64,000 nt of DNA from a virus: IMG/VR virus record IMGVR_UViG_3300029267_002476. One strand, written 5' to 3'. Made by a program: the position numbers and the translations under genes. Each line of letters begins with the position of its first letter. Position 1 is the stretch's first letter. The notes under the pieces were generated by a model. That model worked only from the letters and a program-made list of their open reading frames with translations, did no database searches and was not told the origin of the DNA. Positions 3,046-35,898 of this stretch are shown one piece after another.

Positions 3046-3092
3046 CCTGTCCTCTTTCCAGGCCGGGTCTTTCCCTCGCCCTCTCACTGTAC

Positions 3093-3121
3093 AACTTACA
3101 TCCTGCAAAGTAGTTTGTCAA
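3093..3121 (-). promoter_or_regulatory. sigma70-like promoter (GTTGACAAA -35, N17, TAAGTT -10)
   Basis: The minus strand reads GTTGACAaactactttgcaggatgTAAGTT. It is homologous over about 75 nt to the promoter-leader at 35160-35241. Confidence 0.55.
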
Positions 3122-3201
3122 CACCCTCTGGGGAAAGAAACCAAATATCTCTGATCACCCTGATCAGCTACCTTAGATACGTCTAATATCAACCTTACTA
3201 A

Positions 3202-3654
3202 TTACGCCAAATCATCTATCGATGGCATCTTCGCGGACGCATCAAGCCCCTTGATTACATCGGCAATTTCCTGATACAGCAGTCGACCTTCTTTTGTCAA
3301 CACTCCGTCTTCGATGTACCCCCGACTCTTTGCCCATCCCTGGCGCGAGAACACCGGCCACCCTTCTCCCAGTGTCGATTCTAGAAGATCCACAACCATT
3401 CTCTTGCCCGTGTTAATGACAGGTTCTTCCGCCTCTTGTACGCTCACCTCGGATAGAAAAGACATACTAGTCTCAGCATCAGCGAGCCTCACACCACCCT
3501 CGCTACTACAGACCCAGAGCCCCCCTGAGCCATCGCTCACGACCTTTGTTATTGACAGCTCATCTCCGGGGTATTTCTCTCCTTTGCCACTCTCCCTCGT
3601 CAGAAAGAACCCTGGATTGCCAGGCCGAACCTTGCTAAAATCAACCTTACTCAT
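3202..3654 (-). CDS. hypothetical protein
   Basis: 150-aa ORF with GGAGGG SD. No motif recognised. Confidence 0.5.
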   Translation of the reverse strand: MSKVDFSKVRPGNPGFFLTRESGKGEKYPGDELSITKVVSDGSGGLWVCSSEGGVRLADAETSMSFLSEVSVQEAEEPVINTGKRMVVDLLESTLGEGWPVFSRQGWAKSRGYIEDGVLTKEGRLLYQEIADVIKGLDASAKMPSIDDLA

Positions 3655-3911: not shown

Positions 3912-4295
3912 TTATACGCCCATTATTTCACGAGCCCTGCTCACGAGAAATGCCCTGATGTACTGAGGCAACGTCCCGTCTGGAAAAACCATATGATTGC
4001 CAATAACGGATCTGGCTACCCCGAGCCAATGATCCCCGCGCACCCCAGCAAGGGTCTGCCACGACGAATACGAGAATCGAACCCATTCCCACGGGTCACT
4101 GCTCCCTGGGCCACCCTCTTTATCAATCTCATACATTGAAACGGGGACATTAGGCCAGACCGCAATGGCGCGAGCCATCTCTGGAGAGATAGCATTTACC
4201 ATTGACACATTTTCATCGTGGCGCTCTTTGTACGAGATTAGAATGTCCTCAAACTCACTTATGCGCGACGGAATGACACTACTACTATCCAACAT
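3912..4295 (-). CDS. hypothetical protein
   Basis: 127-aa ORF abutting the downstream gene. Confidence 0.5.
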   Translation of the reverse strand: MLDSSSVIPSRISEFEDILISYKERHDENVSMVNAISPEMARAIAVWPNVPVSMYEIDKEGGPGSSDPWEWVRFSYSSWQTLAGVRGDHWLGVARSVIGNHMVFPDGTLPQYIRAFLVSRAREIMGV

Positions 4296-10172: not shown

Positions 10173-10565
10173 CTAGCCCTCGGTTATCTTCTTACCCACC
10201 AACTGCTCTAGCACTCTAACCGGGATCATCGCCCAATCCCTGTCACACCGGGGATCTCTTTTCCCGCCCTTGATTTCAATGGCTAACACTGGCTCTTTTT
10301 GCACAGCATCGGCCTCCGCCGTGATCTTCAGCAGCCACTCCCATTTCACAGAAAGGCTCGCGTGCATCGTTTGCTTGCACTCCACAAGGAACTCGACATC
10401 GCACTCCTTGCCCTCAAGCAAAACATCCCTGACATCTGCCTTCGAGTACATGCTCGAACCGGAACCCCGGACCCTCTTGCCCCCAAGTCGATCAGCAACG
10501 CGATCCTCTTGCATAGTAGGAGTGCTCTTGCCGTACCCCATCCCCTTGGGACCACGGAACGGCAT
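10173..10565 (-). CDS. Hjc-like PD-(D/E)XK Holliday junction resolvase/endonuclease
   Basis: QEDRVADRL...RVRGSGSS...ADV...FLVECKQT follows the archaeal Hjc pattern E...GSG...D...ExK. Confidence 0.45.
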   Translation of the reverse strand: MPFRGPKGMGYGKSTPTMQEDRVADRLGGKRVRGSGSSMYSKADVRDVLLEGKECDVEFLVECKQTMHASLSVKWEWLLKITAEADAVQKEPVLAIEIKGGKRDPRCDRDWAMIPVRVLEQLVGKKITEG

Positions 10566-11851
10566 TACTTCTCACCCACCGATTCAAACATTTTCTTGAG
10601 TAGAACAGCACGAAGACTGCGCTGTGTTTCTGGCATCTCGAACGTCGCCAGCATGGATGCTTTCTTATCGAAAACCTTGCCGCCAAGGATCCAGGTTTTC
10701 TTCTTCTTCTCGTTCACGCCCTCTTTCAGAAGGCCATACTTCTCAGCCTGAGCGAGAACGTACTTGGTATCCTCTATCTGCCCGGCCCTTGGCCCAGCAA
10801 TGCACATGACATACCCGCCTGAGATCTTCGCTGTGAATGTTTTGTTCTTCTTTGTCCTGAAATTCAAACGAACTTCCCGGCTCATATCCATCTGCCACTC
10901 GGCCTTGAGATCTGAGTCGAACTTGTCTTTACCCCACTTCGAACTCCACATTTCGAGCGTAAGAACAGGAGCAAACTTCTGACCATTCCCTCCAGGTGCA
11001 GTTTTGTTACTGCCAAACATCACCCCAATCTTCTCTCTCTCTTGGTTAATCCATATGTGTGTAGGTGCATGGCCGTAAGCCCTAAGCACATCCAGGTTCG
11101 CCGCATTGACCTTCCGGATAAACTTATTCATGATCCTCGCATGAAGCCCCTGCTGCCAATCAACAGTGGAAGCCTCGATTTCCTTAGACGGGGTCATGGC
11201 GGCAATCGAGTCCAGAATATACATGTTGACCGCGCCCGTCCTGAGCATGTCGTCGTAAATATCCGCCGCCTCCTCTGCTGACGCCGGACTCACAACAAGA
11301 ACCCTCCGAGGATCCAATCCGAGCCCTCTCGCCCAGCCCGAATCGAATGTCCCCTCGATGTCAAAGAACGCAACACGGAACTCCTCGTAGGAATTCTCCT
11401 TGTACGCCTTCAGACGAGCATTGAAATCCAGCTTGTTCTCACCAGGGAACATAACCGGATCCAGGAGACCCTCATTGAAACAGTCACAGCGCCCCACCGC
11501 GTAATACTCAACCTCACCAGTCTCTCCATCCTCGACGTACTCAACCTCTATGTCATCAACATGCCTGAAACAGTTAGCACACAGATTCTGAGCATTGCCC
11601 GCAACTCGGATAGCAGTAGTAGTTTTGCCAGAACTCTCCCCTCCCTGAAAAATAGAGGTTCGCCCGATGCAGATACCACCGCCTGTCGCAAAATCTAAAC
11701 TAAGACTACCCGTCGATATTCTCGGTATATCCTCTGGCCTGAGATGTATAGCATTGCCAATCGTTCGACCATGCTCCTCGTTGATCTTGCCCTTCAGAGC
11801 CCGTAGACCCTCCCTCAGAACATTCCTGCGCTTAGCGACCTCTTCTGCCAT
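10565..11851 (-). CDS. recA: RecA-family recombinase with a ~70-aa Cys-rich insertion
   Basis: GGESSGKTT Walker A, AFFDIEGTFD, and LVVSPASAEEAADIYDDMLRTGAVNMYILDSIAAMTP are collinear with RecA. A CxxC...CxC insert follows the P-loop helix. Confidence 0.8.
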   Translation of the reverse strand: MAEEVAKRRNVLREGLRALKGKINEEHGRTIGNAIHLRPEDIPRISTGSLSLDFATGGGICIGRTSIFQGGESSGKTTTAIRVAGNAQNLCANCFRHVDDIEVEYVEDGETGEVEYYAVGRCDCFNEGLLDPVMFPGENKLDFNARLKAYKENSYEEFRVAFFDIEGTFDSGWARGLGLDPRRVLVVSPASAEEAADIYDDMLRTGAVNMYILDSIAAMTPSKEIEASTVDWQQGLHARIMNKFIRKVNAANLDVLRAYGHAPTHIWINQEREKIGVMFGSNKTAPGGNGQKFAPVLTLEMWSSKWGKDKFDSDLKAEWQMDMSREVRLNFRTKKNKTFTAKISGGYVMCIAGPRAGQIEDTKYVLAQAEKYGLLKEGVNEKKKKTWILGGKVFDKKASMLATFEMPETQRSLRAVLLKKMFESVGEK

Positions 11852-18006: not shown

Positions 18007-20616
18007 CTAAAACGACGTAGCCTCGTCCTTGTAGTCATCCTCTTCTTCTGGCATCTCGTCGTACACCATCTTGTCAAAATCCCACCGGATGGAAATCGAA
18101 TCCCTCTTAAACTGACCACGCCGGATCTTTATCGGCTTCATTTTGAGAATGCCGTCGTCCTTGTCATCCTTGGTCTGCTCAAGGGCAATCACTGTATGGG
18201 CATCCTGGCCAACTTCATCCGCATTCGCTATCGTTCCAAGCCTGGCCCCGCCGCCCTTTTTCTCCGAAAGTTCCGCCGACCTGTTTTGTTGTGAATAACC
18301 AACCGCTGCATAGTTGCCCCTCTTACATGACCTCTTGAGCCACTCTACGCCCGCTATCGTCCTCTCTCGCCTGTCGCCCTTAATATGCAAATCGTAGACT
18401 GAATCCACGACTACGCACTCCGCGTCCGTGGCCCTGATCGCAGAGTCTATCCCAGCCGGGGATATGTCATCCTCTTCGTCCATTATCCAGAGATTCTCCG
18501 ATGGATGGGACGCAACAGCACTAAGACTCTCTACCGTCCTCTCCAGTTGGGGTAGCTCGAAATCAGACAATTCGCCAGAGATTAAACGTTTGTACGAAAC
18601 ACAGGAATGGATGACAAAAAACCGCTCTGCAATCTCCTCCTTGGACATCTCAGGAGAGACAAGAAGAACCCGCTTGCCACATAACCAAGCATGGCGAGCA
18701 GCAATGATAGCCACAAACGTGTTGTGAACAACCATGTCGTTTGCAACATAGGCATGCCCGTCCATTACTGTTAAATCGAACACCCTGTGAACGCCGTCGT
18801 CCTCTATGGATTCAATGCGATCCCAGTGATTAACCAGCAGATGCTCAAGATGCTTGGCGTCAAAAGCATCGACAAACGCACGGAATATGCGCCTGCTTAC
18901 TGTGTTCCTCCTGTAGAGCTTGTTCGCGCTGATCCGCACCGTCATCCCAAGCTCACGCGACATCTGCTCATAGCGACGTACTCGCCCGCTCTCATGAAAC
19001 CCTTCAACAATGTGAAGTATCTCCGCTTTCAACTTCGGAGTAATCGGAATGTTATCAACGTTCGGATTCTTAGCATTTTTCAGCAAACGAGCCTTCTCCG
19101 CCTTCTCGCCAACTATCGGTATCTGCTCCTTGAAACGCTCATACGAAGTCGCATAGACCTTGTATATCCAACTATCGAATACGCCCGTCTGACACTTCGA
19201 TCTCTTGTACCTGATTCCGCCGTGTATTCCGAACCTTAAAAACAACCTCTGTATCTGCTCAACCATCTCCTTGGAGGCAAGACCTATCTCGATAGTGCAA
19301 TAGCCATTTTTACCAACAGGAAACGAACCATCGCAGCTCCAGAGCATACCAAGGAACTTGGCCAAGGATTCGTTGTCATACTGGAACACTCTATCAGGAA
19401 TCACCTTGTTCTTTGATAGCGATCTACAGCATCCCCACTCGTCCCATTTCTTCCAAAAATTACGACCACCTTTCACCCTGTAACGACCGTCGTCTTTGCC
19501 CTTTATCATCGGAACAAGCTCACAACCATGATATGACACTGCCTCACGCACAAAACTCACAATCGCCTGATCTCTTTTTGTAAACGTAGGTACATCCTGG
19601 GTCACACCTCCATCAGCCAACATTGCAGCAATGAGCATCGACTCATTGTCACCTACCTTAAACGCCATCTCAGGCTCAGGAACAATACCCACCGCCTCAG
19701 CGTAATCGCCGATCTTAAGTTCGTCCGTCCGCTTCCACCCGTCTACCGTCATCACTGGATGCTCTGGGGTCTGAGACATCTCCCGCCCGCTATAAAAGCG
19801 GACCTTCATACACTCCTTTGTCCCCATATCCAGCCAAGCATCAGGAGTAACACCCACAATAGAACCATTAGACTTTCGGGTGAGAACGTCGTCTCTATCC
19901 TTGACAACCTGCTCTATGGTCTTGTATTGTCCAGTCTTCTTGATGTAGGTTAATGTGCGGGCATGTAGGCATTTCCCTGTGCCGGGGCGGGCCACGAACA
20001 TCGTCAATGTTTTAGGCCACAACCCCGCTGTCATATCATCCAGCGATTTCCAAGGCAGAGGGATCCCCCTGAACCCACTTGCCACCTTGCCGTACGACTC
20101 AAGAACCTGATCACCCATGCCCAACAGACTCATCGGCATGTTAGATTTCTCAAGATCCCTGGTAGCCAGCGCTAGGCCCTCTAACGCCTCTGTCACATGC
20201 AGGGCGTCTCCGCTTGAGAACCCTGCCTCTACGACAATGCGAGCAGCATGGATGACGTTCCTGACCCCTGACAGCTCTCTCACAATCTTGGAGTAATGCT
20301 CTGCATTCGCCGCCGCCGAAATATTATCGGCCAGATCCATCAGCTCGACAGCACCCCCCGCCTTGGAAAGCTCTCCGGTCTTCATCATCTCGTGGCCAAG
20401 GGTAACGTGATCCACTGGCATGCCGCCCTTGGATACACGCTCCATTGCCTTGTATATAATCTTATGGGTTTCGAAGAAAAAGTCGGACGGCTCGATTATC
20501 GTTGCCACGGTTTCCAAAACCGAATTATCCAACAGTACGCTACCCAGGATTTTGCGTTCAGCTTCTCGGTTAGAAGGCGGAACCCTTCCGTTGCCGACAT
20601 CGGCAGCATTCATCAT
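18007..20616 (-). CDS. dnaB: DnaB-family replicative helicase interrupted by an intein
   Basis: N-terminal EAERKILGSVLLDNS. The Walker A motif ARPGTGK|...|TFVAIIAA is split. Downstream are VVVDSVYDL and YSQQNR motifs. Confidence 0.85.
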   Translation of the reverse strand: MMNAADVGNGRVPPSNREAERKILGSVLLDNSVLETVATIIEPSDFFFETHKIIYKAMERVSKGGMPVDHVTLGHEMMKTGELSKAGGAVELMDLADNISAAANAEHYSKIVRELSGVRNVIHAARIVVEAGFSSGDALHVTEALEGLALATRDLEKSNMPMSLLGMGDQVLESYGKVASGFRGIPLPWKSLDDMTAGLWPKTLTMFVARPGTGKCLHARTLTYIKKTGQYKTIEQVVKDRDDVLTRKSNGSIVGVTPDAWLDMGTKECMKVRFYSGREMSQTPEHPVMTVDGWKRTDELKIGDYAEAVGIVPEPEMAFKVGDNESMLIAAMLADGGVTQDVPTFTKRDQAIVSFVREAVSYHGCELVPMIKGKDDGRYRVKGGRNFWKKWDEWGCCRSLSKNKVIPDRVFQYDNESLAKFLGMLWSCDGSFPVGKNGYCTIEIGLASKEMVEQIQRLFLRFGIHGGIRYKRSKCQTGVFDSWIYKVYATSYERFKEQIPIVGEKAEKARLLKNAKNPNVDNIPITPKLKAEILHIVEGFHESGRVRRYEQMSRELGMTVRISANKLYRRNTVSRRIFRAFVDAFDAKHLEHLLVNHWDRIESIEDDGVHRVFDLTVMDGHAYVANDMVVHNTFVAIIAARHAWLCGKRVLLVSPEMSKEEIAERFFVIHSCVSYKRLISGELSDFELPQLERTVESLSAVASHPSENLWIMDEEDDISPAGIDSAIRATDAECVVVDSVYDLHIKGDRRERTIAGVEWLKRSCKRGNYAAVGYSQQNRSAELSEKKGGGARLGTIANADEVGQDAHTVIALEQTKDDKDDGILKMKPIKIRRGQFKRDSISIRWDFDKMVYDEMPEEEDDYKDEATSF
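18721..19971 (-). mobile_element. class-1 intein (417 aa) with LAGLIDADG homing endonuclease, inserted in the DnaB P-loop
   Basis: Starts at Cys216 (CLHARTL) and has block B TPEHPV. Two LAGLIDADG-like motifs (LIAAMLADGG, LAKFLGMLWSCDGS). Ends VVHN|T. Excision restores GTGKT. Confidence 0.8.
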
Positions 20617-28774: not shown

Positions 28775-28808
28775 GCTAATCTCCCTAGATGAACTACCAC
28801 GCACCATG

Positions 28809-30062
28809 CTAACGCATGGAGGTGGTTCCGTGCCTCAACGGACCAGTAATCTGGCACCTCCACACTTCGGACGGTTCCCGCCCGGATTGCTTGAAACCTC
28901 TCGATAGAATATTGATTGCGGCATTGTGATCGCGATTAGCCTCGAAACCACAAACAGGACAAGAATGCCACCTGTCCCCCAGCGACTTCTCGACATGCTC
29001 CCCACAACGGGCGCATTGCTGCGTCGTTCCACTCGGGTCTACTCGCTCAAACTGAGTGCCAGCTTCCACCGCTTTGTACTCAAGCTTTTGATAGAACATT
29101 CCCAGGCTTGCATCCAACATCGACCGATTGAGGCCGGATTTCTGTCTGATTTTACGACCCGGTTTCTCTAGCGTCCCCTTCGCCGACCGGATCATGTTTT
29201 TGATCTTGAGATCCTCCACAGCTATAAAGCAATATGCTCCGACTAGCATCGCAGAAATCTGATGAAGAAAATTCTTCCGTTGATTGGCGACTCGCCTATG
29301 AAGACGAGAAACCCTATCCTGAGCCTTGCTCTTATTCTTCGAACCGCGCTTTTTACGAGACGAATCTCGCTGAGCCGACTTGATTAGCTTCGAGGATTGG
29401 GCAAGATACTTCGGATTCTTTATCTCTATCCCGTTAGACAAATACGCAAGAACTTTAACTCCGCCATCAATACCTACTGAAGTGCGTGGATTTATCTCAG
29501 GGCGAAATACTGTGGTAATCGCGTGTCGATAACCAAACGTCGCAAACCATCTACCTTGTCGCCTTTGTACAGTGAGCGTTCTACGCTCTCCGTCCTCAAG
29601 AGGCACACGAGCCCTTCCTCGCATCGAGAAAAAACCGAGATTAGAAATCCGAAGTTTGCCACCTTTCTCCGTCCACTTCTCGACATTCCACCCTGCTGGA
29701 TCAGGATAGCAAAACGAATCATAGCGCTTGCGGTTCCTGAAACGCGGGAAACCAGCCTTCCCAGCTTTCATTTTGACTCGACGGAAGAAAGCAGAAAATG
29801 CTCGGTCAACCCGCCGAACAGTCTCTTGGAGAGCATGACTCCCAAGCGGATTAAACTCTGGCCTGTCGAGCTTGATGGCGGGAAGCTGATTCTGCTGATC
29901 GTTGTACGTGACGCGAATACCATTCTTTCGCCACGCATCACGTCGCTCTTGAAGCGCAGCGTTGTACATCTCACAGTGAAGACCGAGCCAACCAATTAAA
30001 ACTGATTCCTGTTTACTGGTTGGATAAAGTCGAAATTCGTAATTTCTAGTTGTGGTTTCCAC
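28809..30062 (-). CDS. tnpB: TnpB (IS200/IS605 OrfB) RNA-guided nuclease
   Basis: RuvC triad candidates GIDGG, AVEDL, RDHNAAINI. Zinc finger CARCG...CPVCG. GTG start. Confidence 0.85.
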   Translation of the reverse strand: METTTRNYEFRLYPTSKQESVLIGWLGLHCEMYNAALQERRDAWRKNGIRVTYNDQQNQLPAIKLDRPEFNPLGSHALQETVRRVDRAFSAFFRRVKMKAGKAGFPRFRNRKRYDSFCYPDPAGWNVEKWTEKGGKLRISNLGFFSMRGRARVPLEDGERRTLTVQRRQGRWFATFGYRHAITTVFRPEINPRTSVGIDGGVKVLAYLSNGIEIKNPKYLAQSSKLIKSAQRDSSRKKRGSKNKSKAQDRVSRLHRRVANQRKNFLHQISAMLVGAYCFIAVEDLKIKNMIRSAKGTLEKPGRKIRQKSGLNRSMLDASLGMFYQKLEYKAVEAGTQFERVDPSGTTQQCARCGEHVEKSLGDRWHSCPVCGFEANRDHNAAINILSRGFKQSGREPSEVWRCQITGPLRHGTTSMR

Positions 30063-30085
30063 TTTGCTTCCCTATCATAGTTTCA

Positions 30086-30496
30086 ATGCTGCAACAAGAC
30101 CTAAGATGCCATGCACACTGCGTATTTCGCATATTCTACCACATAGTCTTTGTCACTAAGTACCGACACAAAGCTCTTTCTGATCCAATCCTGGAACGTC
30201 TGGGCGACCACTTTCGAAGAGTTTGCGAAAATGCAGGCTGCAAACTCACCGAATACAATGGCGAACGTGACCATGTACACTTGCTCATTGATGCTCATCC
30301 AAACATCCAGCCGAGCAAACTCGTAAACACACTCAAAACAATTAGCTCTCGCGAAATCCGACGTGAGTTCGAAGGTGAACTCAAAAAATACTACTGGAAA
30401 CCCGTACTGTGGAATCGGGCATACTGCGTGCTCTCGGCTGGCGGAGCCCCTCTTGAAGTAATAAAACGATATATCCAAAATCAAAATGGCGGCTAA
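30086..30496 (+). CDS. tnpA: IS200/IS605 Y1 (HUH) transposase TnpA
   Basis: YHIVFVTKYR, HUH motif HVHLLI, and catalytic Tyr context KRYIQNQ. The track start at 30050 would overlap the tnpB start. Confidence 0.8.
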   Translation: MLQQDLRCHAHCVFRIFYHIVFVTKYRHKALSDPILERLGDHFRRVCENAGCKLTEYNGERDHVHLLIDAHPNIQPSKLVNTLKTISSREIRREFEGELKKYYWKPVLWNRAYCVLSAGGAPLEVIKRYIQNQNGG

Positions 30497-30527
30497 CTCC
30501 ATCCTACGCTGCGCTTAGAGGATGGAG
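30497..30527. promoter_or_regulatory. hairpin CTCCATCC-N15-GGATGGAG at the tnpA-proximal IS end
   Basis: 8-bp stem read directly. The loop contains the stop of convergent gene 30515-30949. Confidence 0.6.
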
Positions 30528-30949
30528 AATGCGCCGCCCGGATCCAGCTTCATCTCACCAATGTGGGCAATGCCAACACCGGAGGCATGCTCCATCCAAT
30601 AATACGCCTCTTTTCGGGTTACCCCCCCCTCTTTCCACAATAGATCAAAAACCTCGTGTGCCTTCTTACGCCAGTCCTTGCCCTCCTGATTTGTCGGGAT
30701 ACCCAGCGGCCTCCCGTCCGGATGGCACCCAATAGACCCGTTGCACCCAGTTTCGAAGAAATTAACGCAACCGTAAAAATGCCTTCGATACCTCTTAGAG
30801 AACCGACGCTTCAGCTTCCCGTCACACATGGGACAGTCGAAGTCCTGCTCTGGGGCCAAACCTGGCCTTTGAACAAACTCTCGTCTCGGTATACGCTCTC
30901 CTGCTGCTTTGGGATTCAAACCATTAGGAAGATGGTCAATACGTGACAT
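30515..30949 (-). CDS. zinc-finger protein (topoisomerase-type C4 ribbon-like)
   Basis: CPMCDGKLKRRFSKRYRRHFYGCVNFFETGC. 144 aa. Confidence 0.45.
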   Translation of the reverse strand: MSRIDHLPNGLNPKAAGERIPRREFVQRPGLAPEQDFDCPMCDGKLKRRFSKRYRRHFYGCVNFFETGCNGSIGCHPDGRPLGIPTNQEGKDWRKKAHEVFDLLWKEGGVTRKEAYYWMEHASGVGIAHIGEMKLDPGGAFSIL

Positions 30950-31250
30950 CCAAGTTCTTACCCCTTTGTCTCATCGCTGCCTCCGAGTCGTCCAACTGGG
31001 CGGGTCTAGCCCATTGCCTCGGCTGATGTAGCCTGCCGCTCCCACCGTCAGGACCAGGGAGCAGCTCATTATGCCACTCTATTGCGCGTATCGATTGTCT
31101 CATGCTCATATTGCATTCTCGGCACAGCCTTACGCGAACAATATCTCGGCTTTCTGACTCTGTGAAAAAATGGACGTTCACGGACCGCATCTCATCTCTC
31201 GGAACCACCACCCCGCATCTCTTGCACGCTGCATAATTCATACTCTGCAC
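30936..31250 (-). CDS. hypothetical zinc-ribbon protein
   Basis: CKRCG...CRECN. The start may be 31250 or 31241. Confidence 0.4.
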   Translation of the reverse strand: MQSMNYAACKRCGVVVPRDEMRSVNVHFFTESESRDIVRVRLCRECNMSMRQSIRAIEWHNELLPGPDGGSGRLHQPRQWARPAQLDDSEAAMRQRGKNLDVTY

Positions 31251-31410
31251 CTCTATCGGTGTCCTCTTTGTGCCCTCCCTTGATCCCCTGGTAGAACAAC
31301 TCGATACCCAGGATCACAACTAAAAACACAAAAAAAACAACCCACCGAGACCTCTCGCCTCGGACACGTTCATCCTCCTCCCACGGGAGGACCAATTCTG
31401 CTCTCTTCAT
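31192..31410 (-). CDS. small membrane protein (tentative)
   Basis: 72 aa. TM segment WVVFFVFLVVILGIELF. 59-nt overlap with the next ORF. Confidence 0.35.
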   Translation of the reverse strand: MKRAELVLPWEEDERVRGERSRWVVFFVFLVVILGIELFYQGIKGGHKEDTDRGAEYELCSVQEMRGGGSER

Positions 31411-31456
31411 CTGTTCGCCCCTTCAACTCATGCAACATTCAACTTATAGCAGATTT

Positions 31457-31768
31457 TTAAACTATGGCGATAATGTCTCCCGCCACGACAGCACACAAAT
31501 CCTTGTCGCCGACCTCGAAGTCAGTACCGACGAATCTGCCAATAACAACCTTGTCTCCAACGTTGATACCATCAACGTCCGGCCCTACACCTACGACACA
31601 CGCCGTTTGGGGAGGCTTCTCGGCACTAGCCGGGAGAACAATCCCGCCAGGGCTCATTTGCTCGCTGCCTTCGGCCTTGTCGCGCTCGACGACAACATAC
31701 CCGCCTAACACTTTCATCTCTTCAGCAACCGCTTCTCCGCATTTTGAATCACAACTACAATCGCTCAT
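31457..31768 (-). CDS. groS: GroES/Cpn10-like co-chaperonin
   Basis: KVLGGYVVVERDK...GGIVLP...VVGVGP...GDKVV...AIV follows the GroES pattern. ATG 31768 overlaps the upstream stop (ATGA). Confidence 0.7.
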   Translation of the reverse strand: MSDCSCDSKCGEAVAEEMKVLGGYVVVERDKAEGSEQMSPGGIVLPASAEKPPQTACVVGVGPDVDGINVGDKVVIGRFVGTDFEVGDKDLCAVVAGDIIAIV

Positions 31769-31974
31769 TGGTTCTCTGCCCTCCACTTTAGACATTTCTG
31801 ACCTATTTCCATAATGCGCCGCCTGTCCTCGCGAGTGACACTCTGGGACGTGACGCAATTACAACCTCGTCTTTTTTTCGCCGCCGCCATAAAGGCAATC
31901 TCCTCATCTGAGAGGACCATCTCACCCACGGCCTCTGCAAGGCCAAACGACTCCAAGATTCCTACCACTCTCAC
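31765..31974 (-). CDS. hypothetical protein
   Basis: 69-aa ORF. Confidence 0.4.
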   Translation of the reverse strand: MRVVGILESFGLAEAVGEMVLSDEEIAFMAAAKKRRGCNCVTSQSVTREDRRRIMEIGQKCLKWRAENQ

Positions 31975-32264
31975 CGAGTGTTCTCCAGAATTAAATCTGT
32001 TTCTTCGATTCCCTCATCTGGCAACAGAACCGATATACGGCCTTGGCCATCCCATCGGCAAGCCAGTCGTCCGACCGGACCAAAGAGAGATTCGTATACA
32101 GGTCCCCAGATGCTAAAGCTCGTCTTAATCGGACCAGACGCCTCCGCCTGCTGGACTCCATGAAATGGAGCCACCGCCCGTTCTGCCCATGCCCTAAGAG
32201 CCTCTGGGCCTGGTTCTGCTGTATTTTCACACCTCAATGATATACCCTGCTTTCTAAAGTGCAT
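31971..32264 (-). other. 97-aa ORF or tnpB-associated omega-RNA/right-end region (unresolved)
   Basis: It lies immediately 3' of tnpB. Several reading frames are open on both strands. Multiple local hairpins, for example CTCCATttcATGGAG. Confidence 0.3.
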
Positions 32265-33446
32265 TCAAACACTTTCGCGCCTGACACAGCTTAGTTCCCG
32301 ATTCACCGAAGCTGGTTTCACGAACAGATCACTGCTCGCCAGGGCCTTCTTCTCCACGGGCGTCACTTCGGGCAAAGCCTGCCCTAGTTTTTTCAAATTT
32401 ACAGCGGCATTGATGTCTCGGTCGTGTGAAGATCCGCACTCCGGACAATCCCATTTTCGGGTGCCTAATGACAAAATATCCAGTTTGAACCCACAATCCG
32501 AACACGTCTTCGACGACGGATACCAGCGATCAGCCACTACTAAACGACCACCGTGATCCGCAACCTTGTACTCAATCTGCCGTCGAAACTCCCCAAACCC
32601 CACGTCGGAAATAGCCCGCGACAGATACCGGTTGCGGACCATGCCCTTCAAGTTCAGGTCTTCAATGACCACTGTACCAAATCGCTGTACTAACCCCGTT
32701 GTCAGCTTGTGCAGCGCGTCGTTGCGGACACACGACACTCGATAATGAAACCGCGCCAACTTTTGCTTGGCCTTCCACCGACGATTCGACCCCTTCTGCT
32801 TGCGGGACAACTGCCGACTCAACCTCTGCAACTTCGCCAATGACTTCTTTAACGGCTTCGGTGCCTCGAACTTCTCCCCAGTGGATAATGTCGCCAGCGA
32901 CTTGATTCCCAGGTCCACCCCAACCACGGCTTGGTTCTCGCTCGTTGTCAGAGTTTTAGGAATATCCACCGCTATTGACACAAACCACTTGTGAGCTGTT
33001 CTTGACACCACCGCTGAAGTTATCTTTCCCGTGAAACGAAGCTCTTCCCTCATCCTTATCCACCCAATACGCGGAATCCGGATTCTCTGGCCATCTACTG
33101 CAAGTCTATCGCTCGACACATAGAAGCTATCACGGACACCTTTCTTCTTGAACCGAGGATACTTCCCTCTTTTTTTAAAAAAACTCTGATAGGCTTTTTC
33201 AACATTCATGAACGGCCGTGCCGTCGCATCACGTAACACTTCCCCAGTCCATGAAAAATCGACATGGCGAATGGCATTAAACTGCTTCCTCAATGCAAAC
33301 CCACTTGGATCCCCGCCCAGATCATACTGCCTCTTCCACTCAGCCAACGCCCAGTTGTATGTGAACCGCGACACTCCGCACGCTCGCCGAAAATACCTCT
33401 CCTGACGAGGGGTCGAATCGAGTGCTATTTTATGGCTACGATTCAA
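32265..33446 (-). CDS. tnpB: TnpB-family RNA-guided nuclease, solo copy (no adjacent tnpA)
   Basis: VGVDLGIKS, VVIEDLNLKGM, HDRDINAAVNL and zinc finger CSDCG...CPECG. It differs clearly from the copy at 28809-30062. Confidence 0.85.
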   Translation of the reverse strand: MNRSHKIALDSTPRQERYFRRACGVSRFTYNWALAEWKRQYDLGGDPSGFALRKQFNAIRHVDFSWTGEVLRDATARPFMNVEKAYQSFFKKRGKYPRFKKKGVRDSFYVSSDRLAVDGQRIRIPRIGWIRMREELRFTGKITSAVVSRTAHKWFVSIAVDIPKTLTTSENQAVVGVDLGIKSLATLSTGEKFEAPKPLKKSLAKLQRLSRQLSRKQKGSNRRWKAKQKLARFHYRVSCVRNDALHKLTTGLVQRFGTVVIEDLNLKGMVRNRYLSRAISDVGFGEFRRQIEYKVADHGGRLVVADRWYPSSKTCSDCGFKLDILSLGTRKWDCPECGSSHDRDINAAVNLKKLGQALPEVTPVEKKALASSDLFVKPASVNRELSCVRRESV

Positions 33447-33452
33447 CTGCCC

Positions 33453-33689
33453 TTACCTCTTCATATCCTCTCTGAAGACTCCATCAGGAGCAATTATGTA
33501 CCCCCCAGAGCGAAGATAATCCATCTCTTCTTCCGACGCTGACATAATACATGCTGGGAAAGACGTGAACATCATATACGCCAAAACTGGCCCAAACGCA
33601 TCACCATCTCCAACCTGAAGCAGCAACTCTTTTCCGCACTTCACGGTGTCCACTTCAATAATAGATCCGGTCATGTGTTGCAGCCTCAT
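33453..33689 (-). CDS. hypothetical protein
   Basis: 78-aa ORF ending 6 nt before the tnpB start. Confidence 0.45.
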   Translation of the reverse strand: MRLQHMTGSIIEVDTVKCGKELLLQVGDGDAFGPVLAYMMFTSFPACIMSASEEEMDYLRSGGYIIAPDGVFREDMKR

Positions 33690-33720
33690 AAAGATCGATT
33701 ACCACGTCAATTCTAAAACG

Positions 33721-33936
33721 TCAACTTGCTGCATATCCCGGATTTAGCCACTGATTAGCAACCGTTCGACCGCCCTGGTCTGCCACGTACTCAGAGACAG
33801 ACGCGCCCCACCTTGTTGCGATAGTGCTCGCCCTCTCCTCGGTGGTGAACACCCCGTATACAACCACGTCGACCCGCTGAATGGTTCCCGTGGAGCTTTT
33901 CTCTTCCGACGTCTTGGAAACAACATACAATGTCAT
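33721..33936 (-). CDS. hypothetical protein
   Basis: 71 aa. The start lies 12 nt from palindrome copy 6. GGGAG SD. Confidence 0.5.
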   Translation of the reverse strand: MTLYVVSKTSEEKSSTGTIQRVDVVVYGVFTTEERASTIATRWGASVSEYVADQGGRTVANQWLNPGYAAS

Positions 33937-33948
33937 ACTGATCTCCCG

Positions 33949-33964
33949 GCGAACTTGAGTTCGC
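33949..33964. promoter_or_regulatory. palindrome family copy 6 (GCGAACTTGAGTTCGC)
   Basis: Perfect. It abuts the upstream TAG stop and lies 12 nt from ATG 33936. Confidence 0.8.
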
Positions 33965-34323
33965 TACCGTTTCCTCTTTGCTGGCTTCTTTTTTGCCCTC
34001 TTAGGCTGCCTTTTTCGCCAACCAGTGCGACCGATCATTTTGTACCGATACTGATCGCGTATCTGAGCCCACATGAACTTACCCTTGCTTCTGGCGTTGA
34101 TCATGTGGTGGTAGACCAAAAACGGGACATCGAAGTACTTGTAGATATTCCCCGAGACCTGAGATCGGCGAGTTGTGGAATCCTTCCAATATCGGATGTA
34201 CAGGATCCCTTTTAGATAGTCGTACCCCACCGAATGGACGTTGGAACTCTCAACTTCCTGCATTGCAGGTATTGATTCAGCTTCAATCATTTTTGCCTCT
34301 ATCAGTGCCCTCATGAATCCCAT
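33964..34323 (-). CDS. KTSC-domain protein with basic tail
   Basis: VESSNVHSVGYDYLKGILYIRY...YKYFDVPFLVYHHMINARSKGKFMW matches the KTSC pattern. Confidence 0.5.
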   Translation of the reverse strand: MGFMRALIEAKMIEAESIPAMQEVESSNVHSVGYDYLKGILYIRYWKDSTTRRSQVSGNIYKYFDVPFLVYHHMINARSKGKFMWAQIRDQYRYKMIGRTGWRKRQPKRAKKKPAKRKR

Positions 34324-34376
34324 ATTACATCACACGGGCTTGCAAGCAAAAATAAAAGGCGAGGCAGAAGGATGGA

Positions 34377-34658
34377 TTACCCGCAGATTACGCCCGGCGC
34401 AGCAGCCGCCTCAGCCGCCTCAGCGGACTCATTGGCAATGCGTTGTTTCCGACTTGGAACCGGCGTCACGCATCCGCACGCCTCGCACTCAATGAAAAGA
34501 TCCCCTGGGGAATTGGGGCTGTGAACCCCCTTGGTCTTGCTGGATTTACACTTCGGACAACCTTGACTCATTGCACCCTCCTCTTTTTTGGGTCTCTCTA
34601 CGACCAAAGGGGAGTCGACTAGATAGCCGCTCCCCTCGGTTAAGGCAGGATTTTTCAA
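34377..34658 (-). CDS. zinc-ribbon protein
   Basis: CPKCKS...CEACGC. 93 aa. Confidence 0.45.
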   Translation of the reverse strand: MKNPALTEGSGYLVDSPLVVERPKKEEGAMSQGCPKCKSSKTKGVHSPNSPGDLFIECEACGCVTPVPSRKQRIANESAEAAEAAAAPGVICG

Positions 34659-34661
34659 AGG

Positions 34662-35159
34662 CTAGACAGCCTCTTTCTTTGCCTCCTCTTTGATTTTGAT
34701 AGTCGGAGCGCTAACCTGGGTGACCTCTCCCTCAAACTCAACCTTGCCCGAGCACGTTGTGCGCGGAACCTTGGCTTTCACACCCTCGAAAATCGCGGAG
34801 ATTTTACCCTCCGGGTCCGCCTCTTTGACCGCTGCCTTGCGAGCAGCCTTGGCCTCTTTTTTCGCCGCAGCGCCCCCTGTCCATCCCTTGAGGTACTCGC
34901 TGGCCACTTCCTCGATAACCTTGGCCGCGCCGTCGCGAGTCACCCCGCAGCGCTGAAGAACGAGAATCATGAACTCCTCACTAATAAGCGAGGAAGTGGA
35001 AGCGCGAGTGTAGTCCTCGCCAACCGAGACTTCACCCTGGACACGGACAACAACATCGACATCGTATTTCTCGCCAGCGACGAGATCTTTGCGAGCTGCC
35101 TTGGCGACTTTGGTTTCGACGGCTTTTGCAACAGCAACGGTTTCAACAGATGTCAACAT
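34662..35159 (-). CDS. hypothetical Ala/Lys/Glu-rich protein
   Basis: ATG 35159 lies 6 nt after a GGAG SD. The track start at 35165 is TTG. Confidence 0.5.
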   Translation of the reverse strand: MLTSVETVAVAKAVETKVAKAARKDLVAGEKYDVDVVVRVQGEVSVGEDYTRASTSSLISEEFMILVLQRCGVTRDGAAKVIEEVASEYLKGWTGGAAAKKEAKAARKAAVKEADPEGKISAIFEGVKAKVPRTTCSGKVEFEGEVTQVSAPTIKIKEEAKKEAV

Positions 35160-35210
35160 TTTCAACTCCTCAGTTTCGGGCCGGGGGTTTTCCCCGTCCT
35201 CTCACTATAC

Positions 35211-35239
35211 AATTTACGTCCTGCAAAGGGGTTTGTCAA
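35211..35239 (-). promoter_or_regulatory. sigma70-like promoter (GTTGACAAA, N17, TAAATT)
   Basis: The minus strand reads GTTGACAaacccctttgcaggacgTAAATT. It is a paralog of the promoter at 3093-3121. Confidence 0.55.
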
Positions 35240-35265
35240 CAAGCTGAGGAAAGAAAAAAGCATTT

Positions 35266-35898
35266 CTACAAAAAGAGTGTCTTATCGAAGAAAACGTGCA
35301 TAGGGGGCAGCACCTCCACTCTCATGTCCGATCGCTCCATGAGCATTATCAAGTATTGAGATGTCTCTGTAACAACACCTCCCTTTTCTATTACCTTATA
35401 CGCCGCCTCCAGGCTCTTCTGAGTCACGTCAATGTCTTTCTGCTTGCATCCATATGCCTTGAGCCGACTGGCCACAAGAGCCGGTTCTAGCATCTCTCCC
35501 GTGAGGTACTTGTACACCTCCATGCTGGCCCGCATCGATTCCATCTCATAGTGAGCCCGCGCCGATGTGCTAGTGATGTACTTGAACGGGAACTTCACCG
35601 GATTCTTGCGAAACTGAACAACGTGATGAGCCTCATGAGCTAGATTCGTAACCTGGCTAACCAAGCCCCAGCGCCCCGCCGCCTTCCCTATCTCATAGGG
35701 TATGTAAATCTTATCCCAAAATGTCACGGCGTACTTGTTCATAAAATCTCCGCGATCCTGAACACCGATCATTTGGAGAAAACTCCCAACCATGCGCATC
35801 GTGGATGACTTGTTCTTTCTCAGTACCTTGAAATTGAACTCCGACTGCATGTCGGCCCATAGCTTTACAACCAGATCGCCCGTTAATACCTTTGCCAT
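35266..35898 (-). CDS. HEXXH-motif protein (possible zinc metallopeptidase)
   Basis: NLAHEAHHVVQF contains HEAHH. 210 aa. Confidence 0.4.
   Translation of the reverse strand: MAKVLTGDLVVKLWADMQSEFNFKVLRKNKSSTMRMVGSFLQMIGVQDRGDFMNKYAVTFWDKIYIPYEIGKAAGRWGLVSQVTNLAHEAHHVVQFRKNPVKFPFKYITSTSARAHYEMESMRASMEVYKYLTGEMLEPALVASRLKAYGCKQKDIDVTQKSLEAAYKVIEKGGVVTETSQYLIMLMERSDMRVEVLPPMHVFFDKTLFL

Follow-up and report, generated by a model that had tools for sequence, protein, structure and literature searches.

Whether a tnpB gene that has no transposase partner and stands closely packed among phage genes is a captured nuclease or a mobile element is the question raised by a locus in IMG/VR virus record IMGVR_UViG_3300029267_002476. 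We analysed a stretch of 64,000 nucleotides (nt) of this record, called the window here, in which the gene encodes a TnpB of 393 amino acids (aa). A sequence-only reading had suggested that it may be an immobilised, domesticated RNA-guided nuclease whose omega RNA, made up of scaffold and guide, is encoded in the open reading frame (ORF) downstream. Comparison with related phages and with other copies of the gene leads us to a different answer: positions 33490–32248 are probably a transposase-less mobile element of the IS607 lineage, consisting of tnpB and an overlapping omega RNA, which inserted recently and would home by cutting alleles that lack it.

Related phages carry the locus without the insertion

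Four contigs from related phages (L218–L221), found via homologues of the 78-aa ORF upstream of tnpB, carried the same gene block without tnpB, in the order 71 aa, 68 aa, 88/94 aa, 69 aa, Cpn10, 72 aa, 101 aa and DUF3268. Their flanks were 72–87% identical to the window. The homology arms ended at 33491 on the left and began again at 32247 on the right, delimiting an insert of 1243 nt (33490–32248). It is surrounded by an imperfect 13-nt target duplication, rather than by the unduplicated target of an IS607 element. The left junction reads ...CTCTGGGGGG / TACATAATTG, which places the integration at or just after GG, as is typical of IS607. At the other end, the conserved terminus ...AGCAG is followed here by a GG that can be assigned to the element or to the target; bacterial relatives end in ...GAACGG.

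The left segment of the insert holds the ribosome-binding site of tnpB (AGAGG, 33460–33456) and a new stop codon for the upstream ORF. Two homologues of this ORF (P0122 and P0123) are 68 aa long and end in ...GGYIIEM and ...GGYILEV, respectively, directly before the stop. The window ORF reads on into the insert, to ...GGYIIAPDGVFREDMKR and its stop, and its last 10 codons (APDGVFREDMKR) are encoded by inserted DNA. As the sequence-only reading had noted, only 6 nt (33447–33452) separate the stop of this ORF from the tnpB start, and it had concluded that no space was left for the left end of an insertion sequence (IS). This conclusion does not hold, because the insertion itself supplied the new end of the upstream ORF: 44 nt at 33490–33447 belong to the insertion, and the ORF merely reads into them. 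Overall, the comparison shows a fairly recent insertion at the point where two small phage genes overlap, directly downstream of a G-rich Shine-Dalgarno-like motif. Immobility is contradicted by these element-free alleles in phages with 72–87% identical flanks, and also by the unrelated contexts of copies 78–81% identical to ours. A pattern scan of IMG/VR for the upstream ORF returned nothing, an exact look-up of the 69-aa protein gave no empty site, and a promoter and terminator scan of 31900–33800 found nothing above chance on the minus strand.

An apparently intact TnpB of the IS607 lineage

The 393-aa protein has the domain architecture of TnpB (HTH/REC, RuvC and zinc-ribbon TNB), with Pfam matches to HTH_OrfB_IS605, OrfB_IS605 and Cas12f1-like_TNB (E = 6e-13, 1e-31 and 4e-24, respectively), all above the gathering scores. 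In a search against solved structures, it matched ISDra2 TnpB with E = 7e-64 and ISFba1 TnpB, which is IS607-type, with E = 1e-51. Residues D178, E262 and D342 aligned with the catalytic D/E/D of both proteins, and the zinc finger (CSDC/CPEC; C315, C318, C334 and C337) was present. The triad and the zinc-finger cysteines were kept in 50–52 of the 52 close-clade members. The catalytic candidates named in the sequence-only reading are thus borne out, and the loss of catalytic residues on proper alignment, which that reading had itself given as a ground for rejection, was not seen. Like TldR, the protein is a phage-borne TnpB homologue with a guide RNA, but TldR has lost its RuvC residues; the intact D/E/D triad rules out a nuclease-dead repressor of this type.

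To which lineage the gene belongs was evident from its more distant relatives. Most relatives at 51–58% identity, in bacterial genomes and on viral contigs, had an ORF of ~220 aa overlapping the tnpB start. By Pfam this ORF contains MerR-HTH and Resolvase domains and is therefore an IS607 serine-recombinase TnpA, which places the lineage in IS607 and not in IS200/IS605. A metagenome scan with the TnpB returned only relatives at 51–58% identity. No transposase gene adjoins the window tnpB, as had been read from the letters alone, and no IS607 TnpA was found in the window or in the close-clade loci. Nor does the element have the Y1 HUH TnpA and the subterminal hairpin ends of IS200/IS605; the only Y1 tnpA of the window (30050–30496) belongs to a separate element. 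The tnpB of that element (28809–30062) is 29% identical to ours, in agreement with the divergence remarked on earlier. Thus, 32265–33446 is, as far as its sequence tells, an intact RNA-guided nuclease gene of the IS607 lineage.

The right end of the element was located in two ways. DNA similarity among ten clade contexts (L001, L120, L121, the two copies of L122, L204, L205, L206, L210 and the window) stopped sharply at ...TTAGAAAGCAG, that is, at 32247 in the window. Bacterial relatives present in several copies (Thiothrix, Malikia) diverged from each other exactly at the homologous position ...GAACGG; therefore, the homologous terminus is the true right end. A right-end DNA pattern run against IMG/VR matched only L001's own contig, and within-window repeat searches found no other copy of the element or its ends.

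A predicted omega RNA scaffold overlaps the 3' end of tnpB

Applied to the ten clade contexts, RNAalifold predicted a structure of 34 pairs, and compensatory changes occurred in 17 of these. From the same ten sequences we built a covariance model, which had one match in the window (152 bits) and further matches at the 3' ends of almost all family members in IMG/VR and in bacterial genomes. The scaffold at 32393–32247 covers the last 129 nt of tnpB and ends 18 nt past its stop codon, at the conserved right terminus; the end of the model coincides with the divergence point of the bacterial copies and of the clade copies. Among 78 bacterial copies, 95.3% of the cells were paired and 31 of the 34 pairs changed on both sides, values reached by none of 500 shuffles, and slid controls gave ~40% pairing. 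Fitting the 78-copy alignment to the model biases the result towards the structure; even so, the margin is very large. Across about 90 relatives, the scaffold structure therefore shows strong covariation.

Guide RNAs of IS607 TnpBs are RAGATH-18-derived RNAs (PMC11061315). The core of the scaffold, 32295–32360, gave the sole Rfam match in the region, to RF03064 (RAGATH-18), with 26.1 bits against a gathering score of 44.9 (E = 0.19) and thus below the threshold; the equivalent place in L121 and L122 scored 25–26 bits. Together, the covarying structure, the right end at 32247 and the RAGATH-18-like core indicate that an omega RNA scaffold overlaps the 3' end of tnpB. A guide RNA on the 3' side of the gene had thus been rightly anticipated, but its proposed position, 31971–32264, was wrong, as the scaffold lies mostly inside tnpB. 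In the covariance search that had been suggested, Rfam's RAGATH-18 stayed below threshold, and the custom clade model, at 152 bits, pointed to 32393–32247.

The locus thus has a structured RNA at the gene's 3' end that runs to the right end and is followed by flank-derived sequence, and the guide should be the first ~20 nt of flanking DNA past that end (GGTATATCATTGAGGTGTGA). This predicted guide had 18 of its 20 positions in common with the empty site of L218 and 16 of 20 with that of L221; the window held no other match with three or fewer mismatches. Of the protospacers that the sequence-only reading had proposed to look for, near-matches thus exist at the empty sites. Exact scans of IMG/VR for the guide of the window, and for the empty sites reconstructed for L121 and L120, found nothing.

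The downstream ORF reads as a conserved phage gene

The right end of the element, AAAGCAGGG, may drive translation of the downstream gene from either of two starts, ATG 32264 for the called 97-aa ORF or TTG 32237 for a protein of 88 aa. The nine additional N-terminal codons of the longer version (MHFRKQGIS) come from the element's right end, in frame. All of L218–L221 preserve the reading frame of the 97-aa ORF, which starts there at a conserved TTG (window 32237) and runs to the same stop codon, and stops interrupt the other frames. Compared with L221, the 88-aa gene had 44 substitutions, 35 at third and none at second codon positions, with a ratio of nonsynonymous to synonymous substitution rates (dN/dS) of 0.05; against L218, dN/dS was 0.14. 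The frame also had the best coding score of the six. A word-indexed protein search with the 97-aa ORF returned only the query itself, a limit of its sensitivity, as homologues were found later via synteny. By these measures, 31971–32237 is a protein gene under purifying selection that is conserved in related phages.

The sequence-only reading had regarded 31971–32264 as a possible place of the omega RNA and had named protein conservation with synonymous bias as what would speak against this; that is the pattern found (dN/dS 0.05–0.14). Its underlying description was partly right. The region is indeed open in several frames (97 and 79 aa on the minus strand; 100, 65 and 61 aa on the plus strand), but its richness in hairpins is marginal (z = -2.1; 6 of 200 shuffles fold as well). 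For annotation, it follows that the insertion altered the ends of two native genes, of 88 aa and 68 aa, which are called as ORFs of 97 aa and 78 aa, respectively.

The 88-aa and 69-aa genes overlap by GTGA at 31971–31974, with the stop of one over the start of the other, and where the element is missing, the 68-aa gene extends in a similar way over the start region of the 88-aa gene. The small-gene block appears to be translationally coupled, and the insertion fell into one such overlap.

Clade copies sit between a Shine-Dalgarno motif and a start codon

A protein search returned a clade at 61–81% identity, all metagenomic and many on phage-like contigs of 45–185 kb. All nine contigs with an identical TnpB protein show the same context, and copies 78–81% identical occupy unrelated gene contexts. 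In L122, a distant relative of the window phage, the copy lies on the opposite side of the 69-aa-gene homologue; the L122 and window copies are evidently independent insertions.

An ATG-initiated ORF of at least 50 codons started 5–10 nt past the right end in 9 of the 10 contexts, compared with 6.8% of random positions and 5 of 71 bacterial copies. The equivalent start in the window is TTG 32237, 9 nt after the right end. On the other side, six of the ten copies had a Shine-Dalgarno-like pentamer (AGGAG, GGAGG, GAGGG or GGGGG) at -67 to -59 from the tnpB start, where 12.5% is expected in a random 35-nt window (P = 5e-4, for a window chosen post hoc). With the pentamer at the left border and a start codon past the right end, the elements are thus placed between the Shine-Dalgarno motif of a gene and the start codon of the same gene. 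The right terminus AAAGCAG(G), one mismatch from AAGGAG, could replace the displaced ribosome-binding site without being a target-adjacent motif (TAM).

The left ends were far less uniform. Left segments were conserved within sub-lineages only (L121 with the second L122 copy, the first L122 copy with L204, and L120 with L205), and neither the 60 nt nor the 44 nt upstream of tnpB in the window showed significant similarity to the nine other copies, whether compared locally or in register. The first flank bases recurred at the left border of L120 and L121 too, over ~9 nt, but such repeats were individually significant in only 3 of 10 copies, and the ten P-values combined by hand (Fisher's method) gave P of roughly 0.04. 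The duplication is thus firm for the window alone, where it is proved by the empty site.

Some left segments contain near-consensus sigma-70 promoter-like sites, as in L206 at about 2925–2970 (TTGACA-N17-TAAAAT) and in L122 at 880–907. Clade elements with such sites may bring their own promoter; none was found in the window copy. At 946–1096, L122 also has an omega-RNA-like copy standing alone, with no tnpB (model R1, 136 bits); a promoter-like site (TTGACA-N16-TAGGAT) and two hairpins precede it, and it ends 5 nt before the next ATG. Either this copy is an element that lost its 5' part, or it serves as an independent guide RNA for the two complete TnpBs encoded by the contig. On an Ectothiorhodospira scaffold, L108, two identical omega RNA matches (3078–3222 and 4030–4174) lie on either side of a stretch of N; an error of assembly is a more probable cause than a second copy.

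Table 1. Positions of the element, its parts and neighbouring features in the window
Feature	Position	Strand	Basis
Upstream phage ORF, 78 aa here, 68 aa natively	33453–33689	-	Homologues, coding score
G-run GGGGGG, native Shine-Dalgarno-like motif of downstream gene, candidate TAM	33501–33506	-	Present in empty sites as CTGGGGG(G)
Left copy of duplicated target, GGGTACATAATTG	33491–33503	-	13 nt of empty site, on both sides of insert
Left segment of insertion, 44 nt	33447–33490	-	Missing from empty sites
tnpB, 393 aa, TTG start	32265–33446	-	ORF list, Pfam, structure alignments, clade conservation
Predicted omega RNA scaffold (right end element RNA, reRNA), at least 147 nt	32247–32393	-	RNAalifold, covariance model, bacterial copies
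RAGATH-18-like core of scaffold	32295–32360	-	RF03064, below threshold
Right copy of duplicated target, GGGTATATCATTG	32235–32247	-	11/13 identical to left copy
Predicted guide, 20 nt	32227–32246	-	First bases past conserved right end
Conserved phage protein gene, 88 aa from TTG 32237 (called 97 aa from ATG 32264)	31971–32237	-	Synteny, dN/dS, coding score
IS605-type element	28775–30549	tnpA 30050–30496 +; tnpB 28809–30062 -	Comparison with L218
DnaB-type replicative helicase with intein and LAGLIDADG homing endonuclease	18007–20616	-	Pfam Intein_splicing, LAGLIDADG_3
RecA/UvsX-like recombinase	10565–11851	-	Pfam RecA, matched in two stretches

Homing as the probable role, and its alternatives

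Of the functions that the sequence-only reading had offered for a phage-borne nuclease, homing is the most plausible, and homing between co-infecting phages, as set out for OMEGA systems (PMC13565253), would be the most likely role of the element. In this scheme, tnpB would be translated from the operon transcript, and the omega RNA would be made from the 3' part of the same transcript. The complex would recognise a G-rich TAM and then the guide match, a combination expected only in element-free alleles of related phages; the candidate TAM context before the guide match is CTGGGGGG, and published IS607 TnpB TAMs are AGGAG or GAGGG (PMC11061315). Such alleles would be cut during co-infection, and recombinational repair would copy the element across, possibly with the RecA/UvsX-type recombinase that the phage encodes, or the competitor would simply be put at a disadvantage. 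The element's own copy would be protected twice, because the insertion parts the TAM from the full target and because the right terminus AGCAG is one mismatch off an AGGAG TAM.

Several observations weigh against this proposal. The TAM is inferred from sequence context only, and the lysines of ISFba1 TnpB that contact it (K80 and K83) are apparently not conserved in the window TnpB, in an alignment read by eye. The known empty-site alleles have 2–4 mismatches to the guide, some within the TAM-proximal 12 nt, so that the guide may not cut those particular relatives (L218/L221-type alleles). Finally, a 13-nt duplication together with an unconserved left segment is unexpected for IS607 or IS605 transposition and equally for clean homologous homing.

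The last of these points bears on how the element arrived. A non-autonomous IS607 element could have been placed by a host-encoded serine-recombinase TnpA acting in trans, with TnpB serving only for retention after excision. The family relatives do carry TnpA, the insertion lies directly after a G-run, as IS607 requires, and its right end shares homology with the ...GAACGG ends of canonical IS607 elements. We nonetheless consider this unlikely. IS607 transposition gives no target duplication or one of at most 2 bp, against 13 nt here; the left segment is only 44 nt long, unconserved and without recognisable TnpA binding sites; no close-clade locus has a TnpA; and the conserved right terminus appears to stop in AG rather than GG.

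Another possibility, to which we give an equally small chance, is that the clade spreads without a transposase, by an insertion route that TnpB itself starts. The right junction would then form via homology to, or priming on, the guide region, and the left junction would be non-homologous, arising from one-ended repair of a break or from target-primed copying of the tnpB/omega RNA transcript. This would explain the sharp right end, the ragged left ends and the variable, imperfect duplications (13 nt here and ~9 nt in L120 and L121); it would also explain the truncated solo omega RNA in L122 and the placement between a Shine-Dalgarno-like TAM and a start codon. A route of this kind, started by a break and homologous at the right junction only, would also suit the 13-nt duplication, the unconserved left segment and the lack of TnpA across the clade, although this is speculation.

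It is more doubtful still that the element is a decaying remnant, neither cutting nor moving, which is tolerated since the operon is undisturbed. Such a remnant would fit the lack of a transposase and of a conserved left end, and the mismatches between the guide and the empty sites of known relatives; its ORF, however, is of full length, the triad and zinc finger are kept in 50–52 of 52 clade members, and base pairing in the RNA has been preserved through compensatory changes among clade members. Very improbable is the domesticated, immobilised phage nuclease with its omega RNA in 31971–32264 and host or competitor DNA as its target: it would suit a gene with intact catalytic residues that is co-oriented and tightly packed with phage genes and has the same context on nine contigs with identical protein, but it fails on the purifying selection in 31971–32237, on the covariance-supported scaffold elsewhere (32393–32247), on the empty sites of close relatives and on a guide with no match beyond its own flank and the corresponding site in relatives.

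Comparison with known systems

The transposase-less homing element proposed here combines features of several known systems. It is close to the ISFba1 IS607 TnpB with its RAGATH-18 reRNA (PDB 8iaz; PMC11061315) in protein length (~390 aa), domains and triad, in the RAGATH-18-like RNA core (GUGGAG...UGAAGC.GGAA), in a G-rich, Shine-Dalgarno-like upstream context that fits AGGAG/GAGGG TAMs, and in relatives that pair with a serine-recombinase TnpA. It differs from that system in a core that scores 26 bits against the Rfam threshold of 44.9, in lacking TnpA and, apparently, the TAM-contact lysines, and in having a phage rather than a gut bacterium as its host. Its scaffold overlaps the coding sequence, whereas the ISFba1 reRNA is described as lying wholly apart from the ORF (PMC11061315).

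By sequence, the best natural structural relative is ISDra2 TnpB (IS200/IS605; PDB 8exa, 8bf8 and 8h1j). There, too, the last part of tnpB is shared with the omega RNA, which stops at the right end and has the guide after it, and the restorative-homing model is applicable. Unlike ISDra2, with its Y1 TnpA, TTGAT TAM and hairpin ends, the window gene has relatives with serine recombinases, and its borders are G-rich. The free-standing homing endonucleases of T-even phages (Seg and Mob) are comparable as selfish nuclease genes that lie between conserved phage genes, are missing from close relatives and are expected to spread by cleaving the element-free allele in co-infection; in contrast to them, target recognition would here be RNA-guided, and the insertion itself would tell self from non-self.

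Phage-borne TnpB genes and the concept of OMEGA homing both have precedents. What looks new is the natural pair of occupied and empty sites, the overlap of a RAGATH-18-like scaffold with the ORF, the systematic location after a Shine-Dalgarno motif and before its start codon, and the duplication with ragged left ends. So far, the case for RNA-guided homing in phages has been made chiefly by comparison with homing endonucleases; occupied and empty alleles in related phages make it directly testable between co-infecting viruses. A RAGATH-18-like scaffold overlapping tnpB also links the IS607 reRNA family to the ISDra2-type arrangement. The absence of TnpA, the ragged left ends, the 13-nt duplication and the Shine-Dalgarno-distance placement lie outside IS607/IS605 transposition and may point to another mobility route.

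Other selfish elements in the phage genome

The window is identical to a 101.7-kb Logan contig, and a blastn search of 30500–35500 against INPHARED phages gave no match. It encodes phage-type replication and recombination genes, among them the intein-bearing DnaB and the RecA/UvsX-like recombinase. Genes between 27 and 36 kb lie on the minus strand, with the IS605-type tnpA itself given as plus. The IS605-type element is independently absent from L218, where 1734–2186 corresponds to window 31026–30550 and 2332–2402 to window 28774–28704. The DUF3268 gene beside it encodes 144 aa here compared with 168 aa in L218, with a different C-terminus; therefore, the IS605-type insertion replaced the 3' end of that gene.

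The two tnpB genes had also been seen as bracketing a segment that carries groES. The groES block is native phage DNA, present in L218 without either element, which rules out a composite transposon with groES as cargo. With the intein and the two TnpB elements, the 64 kb contain at least three selfish elements.

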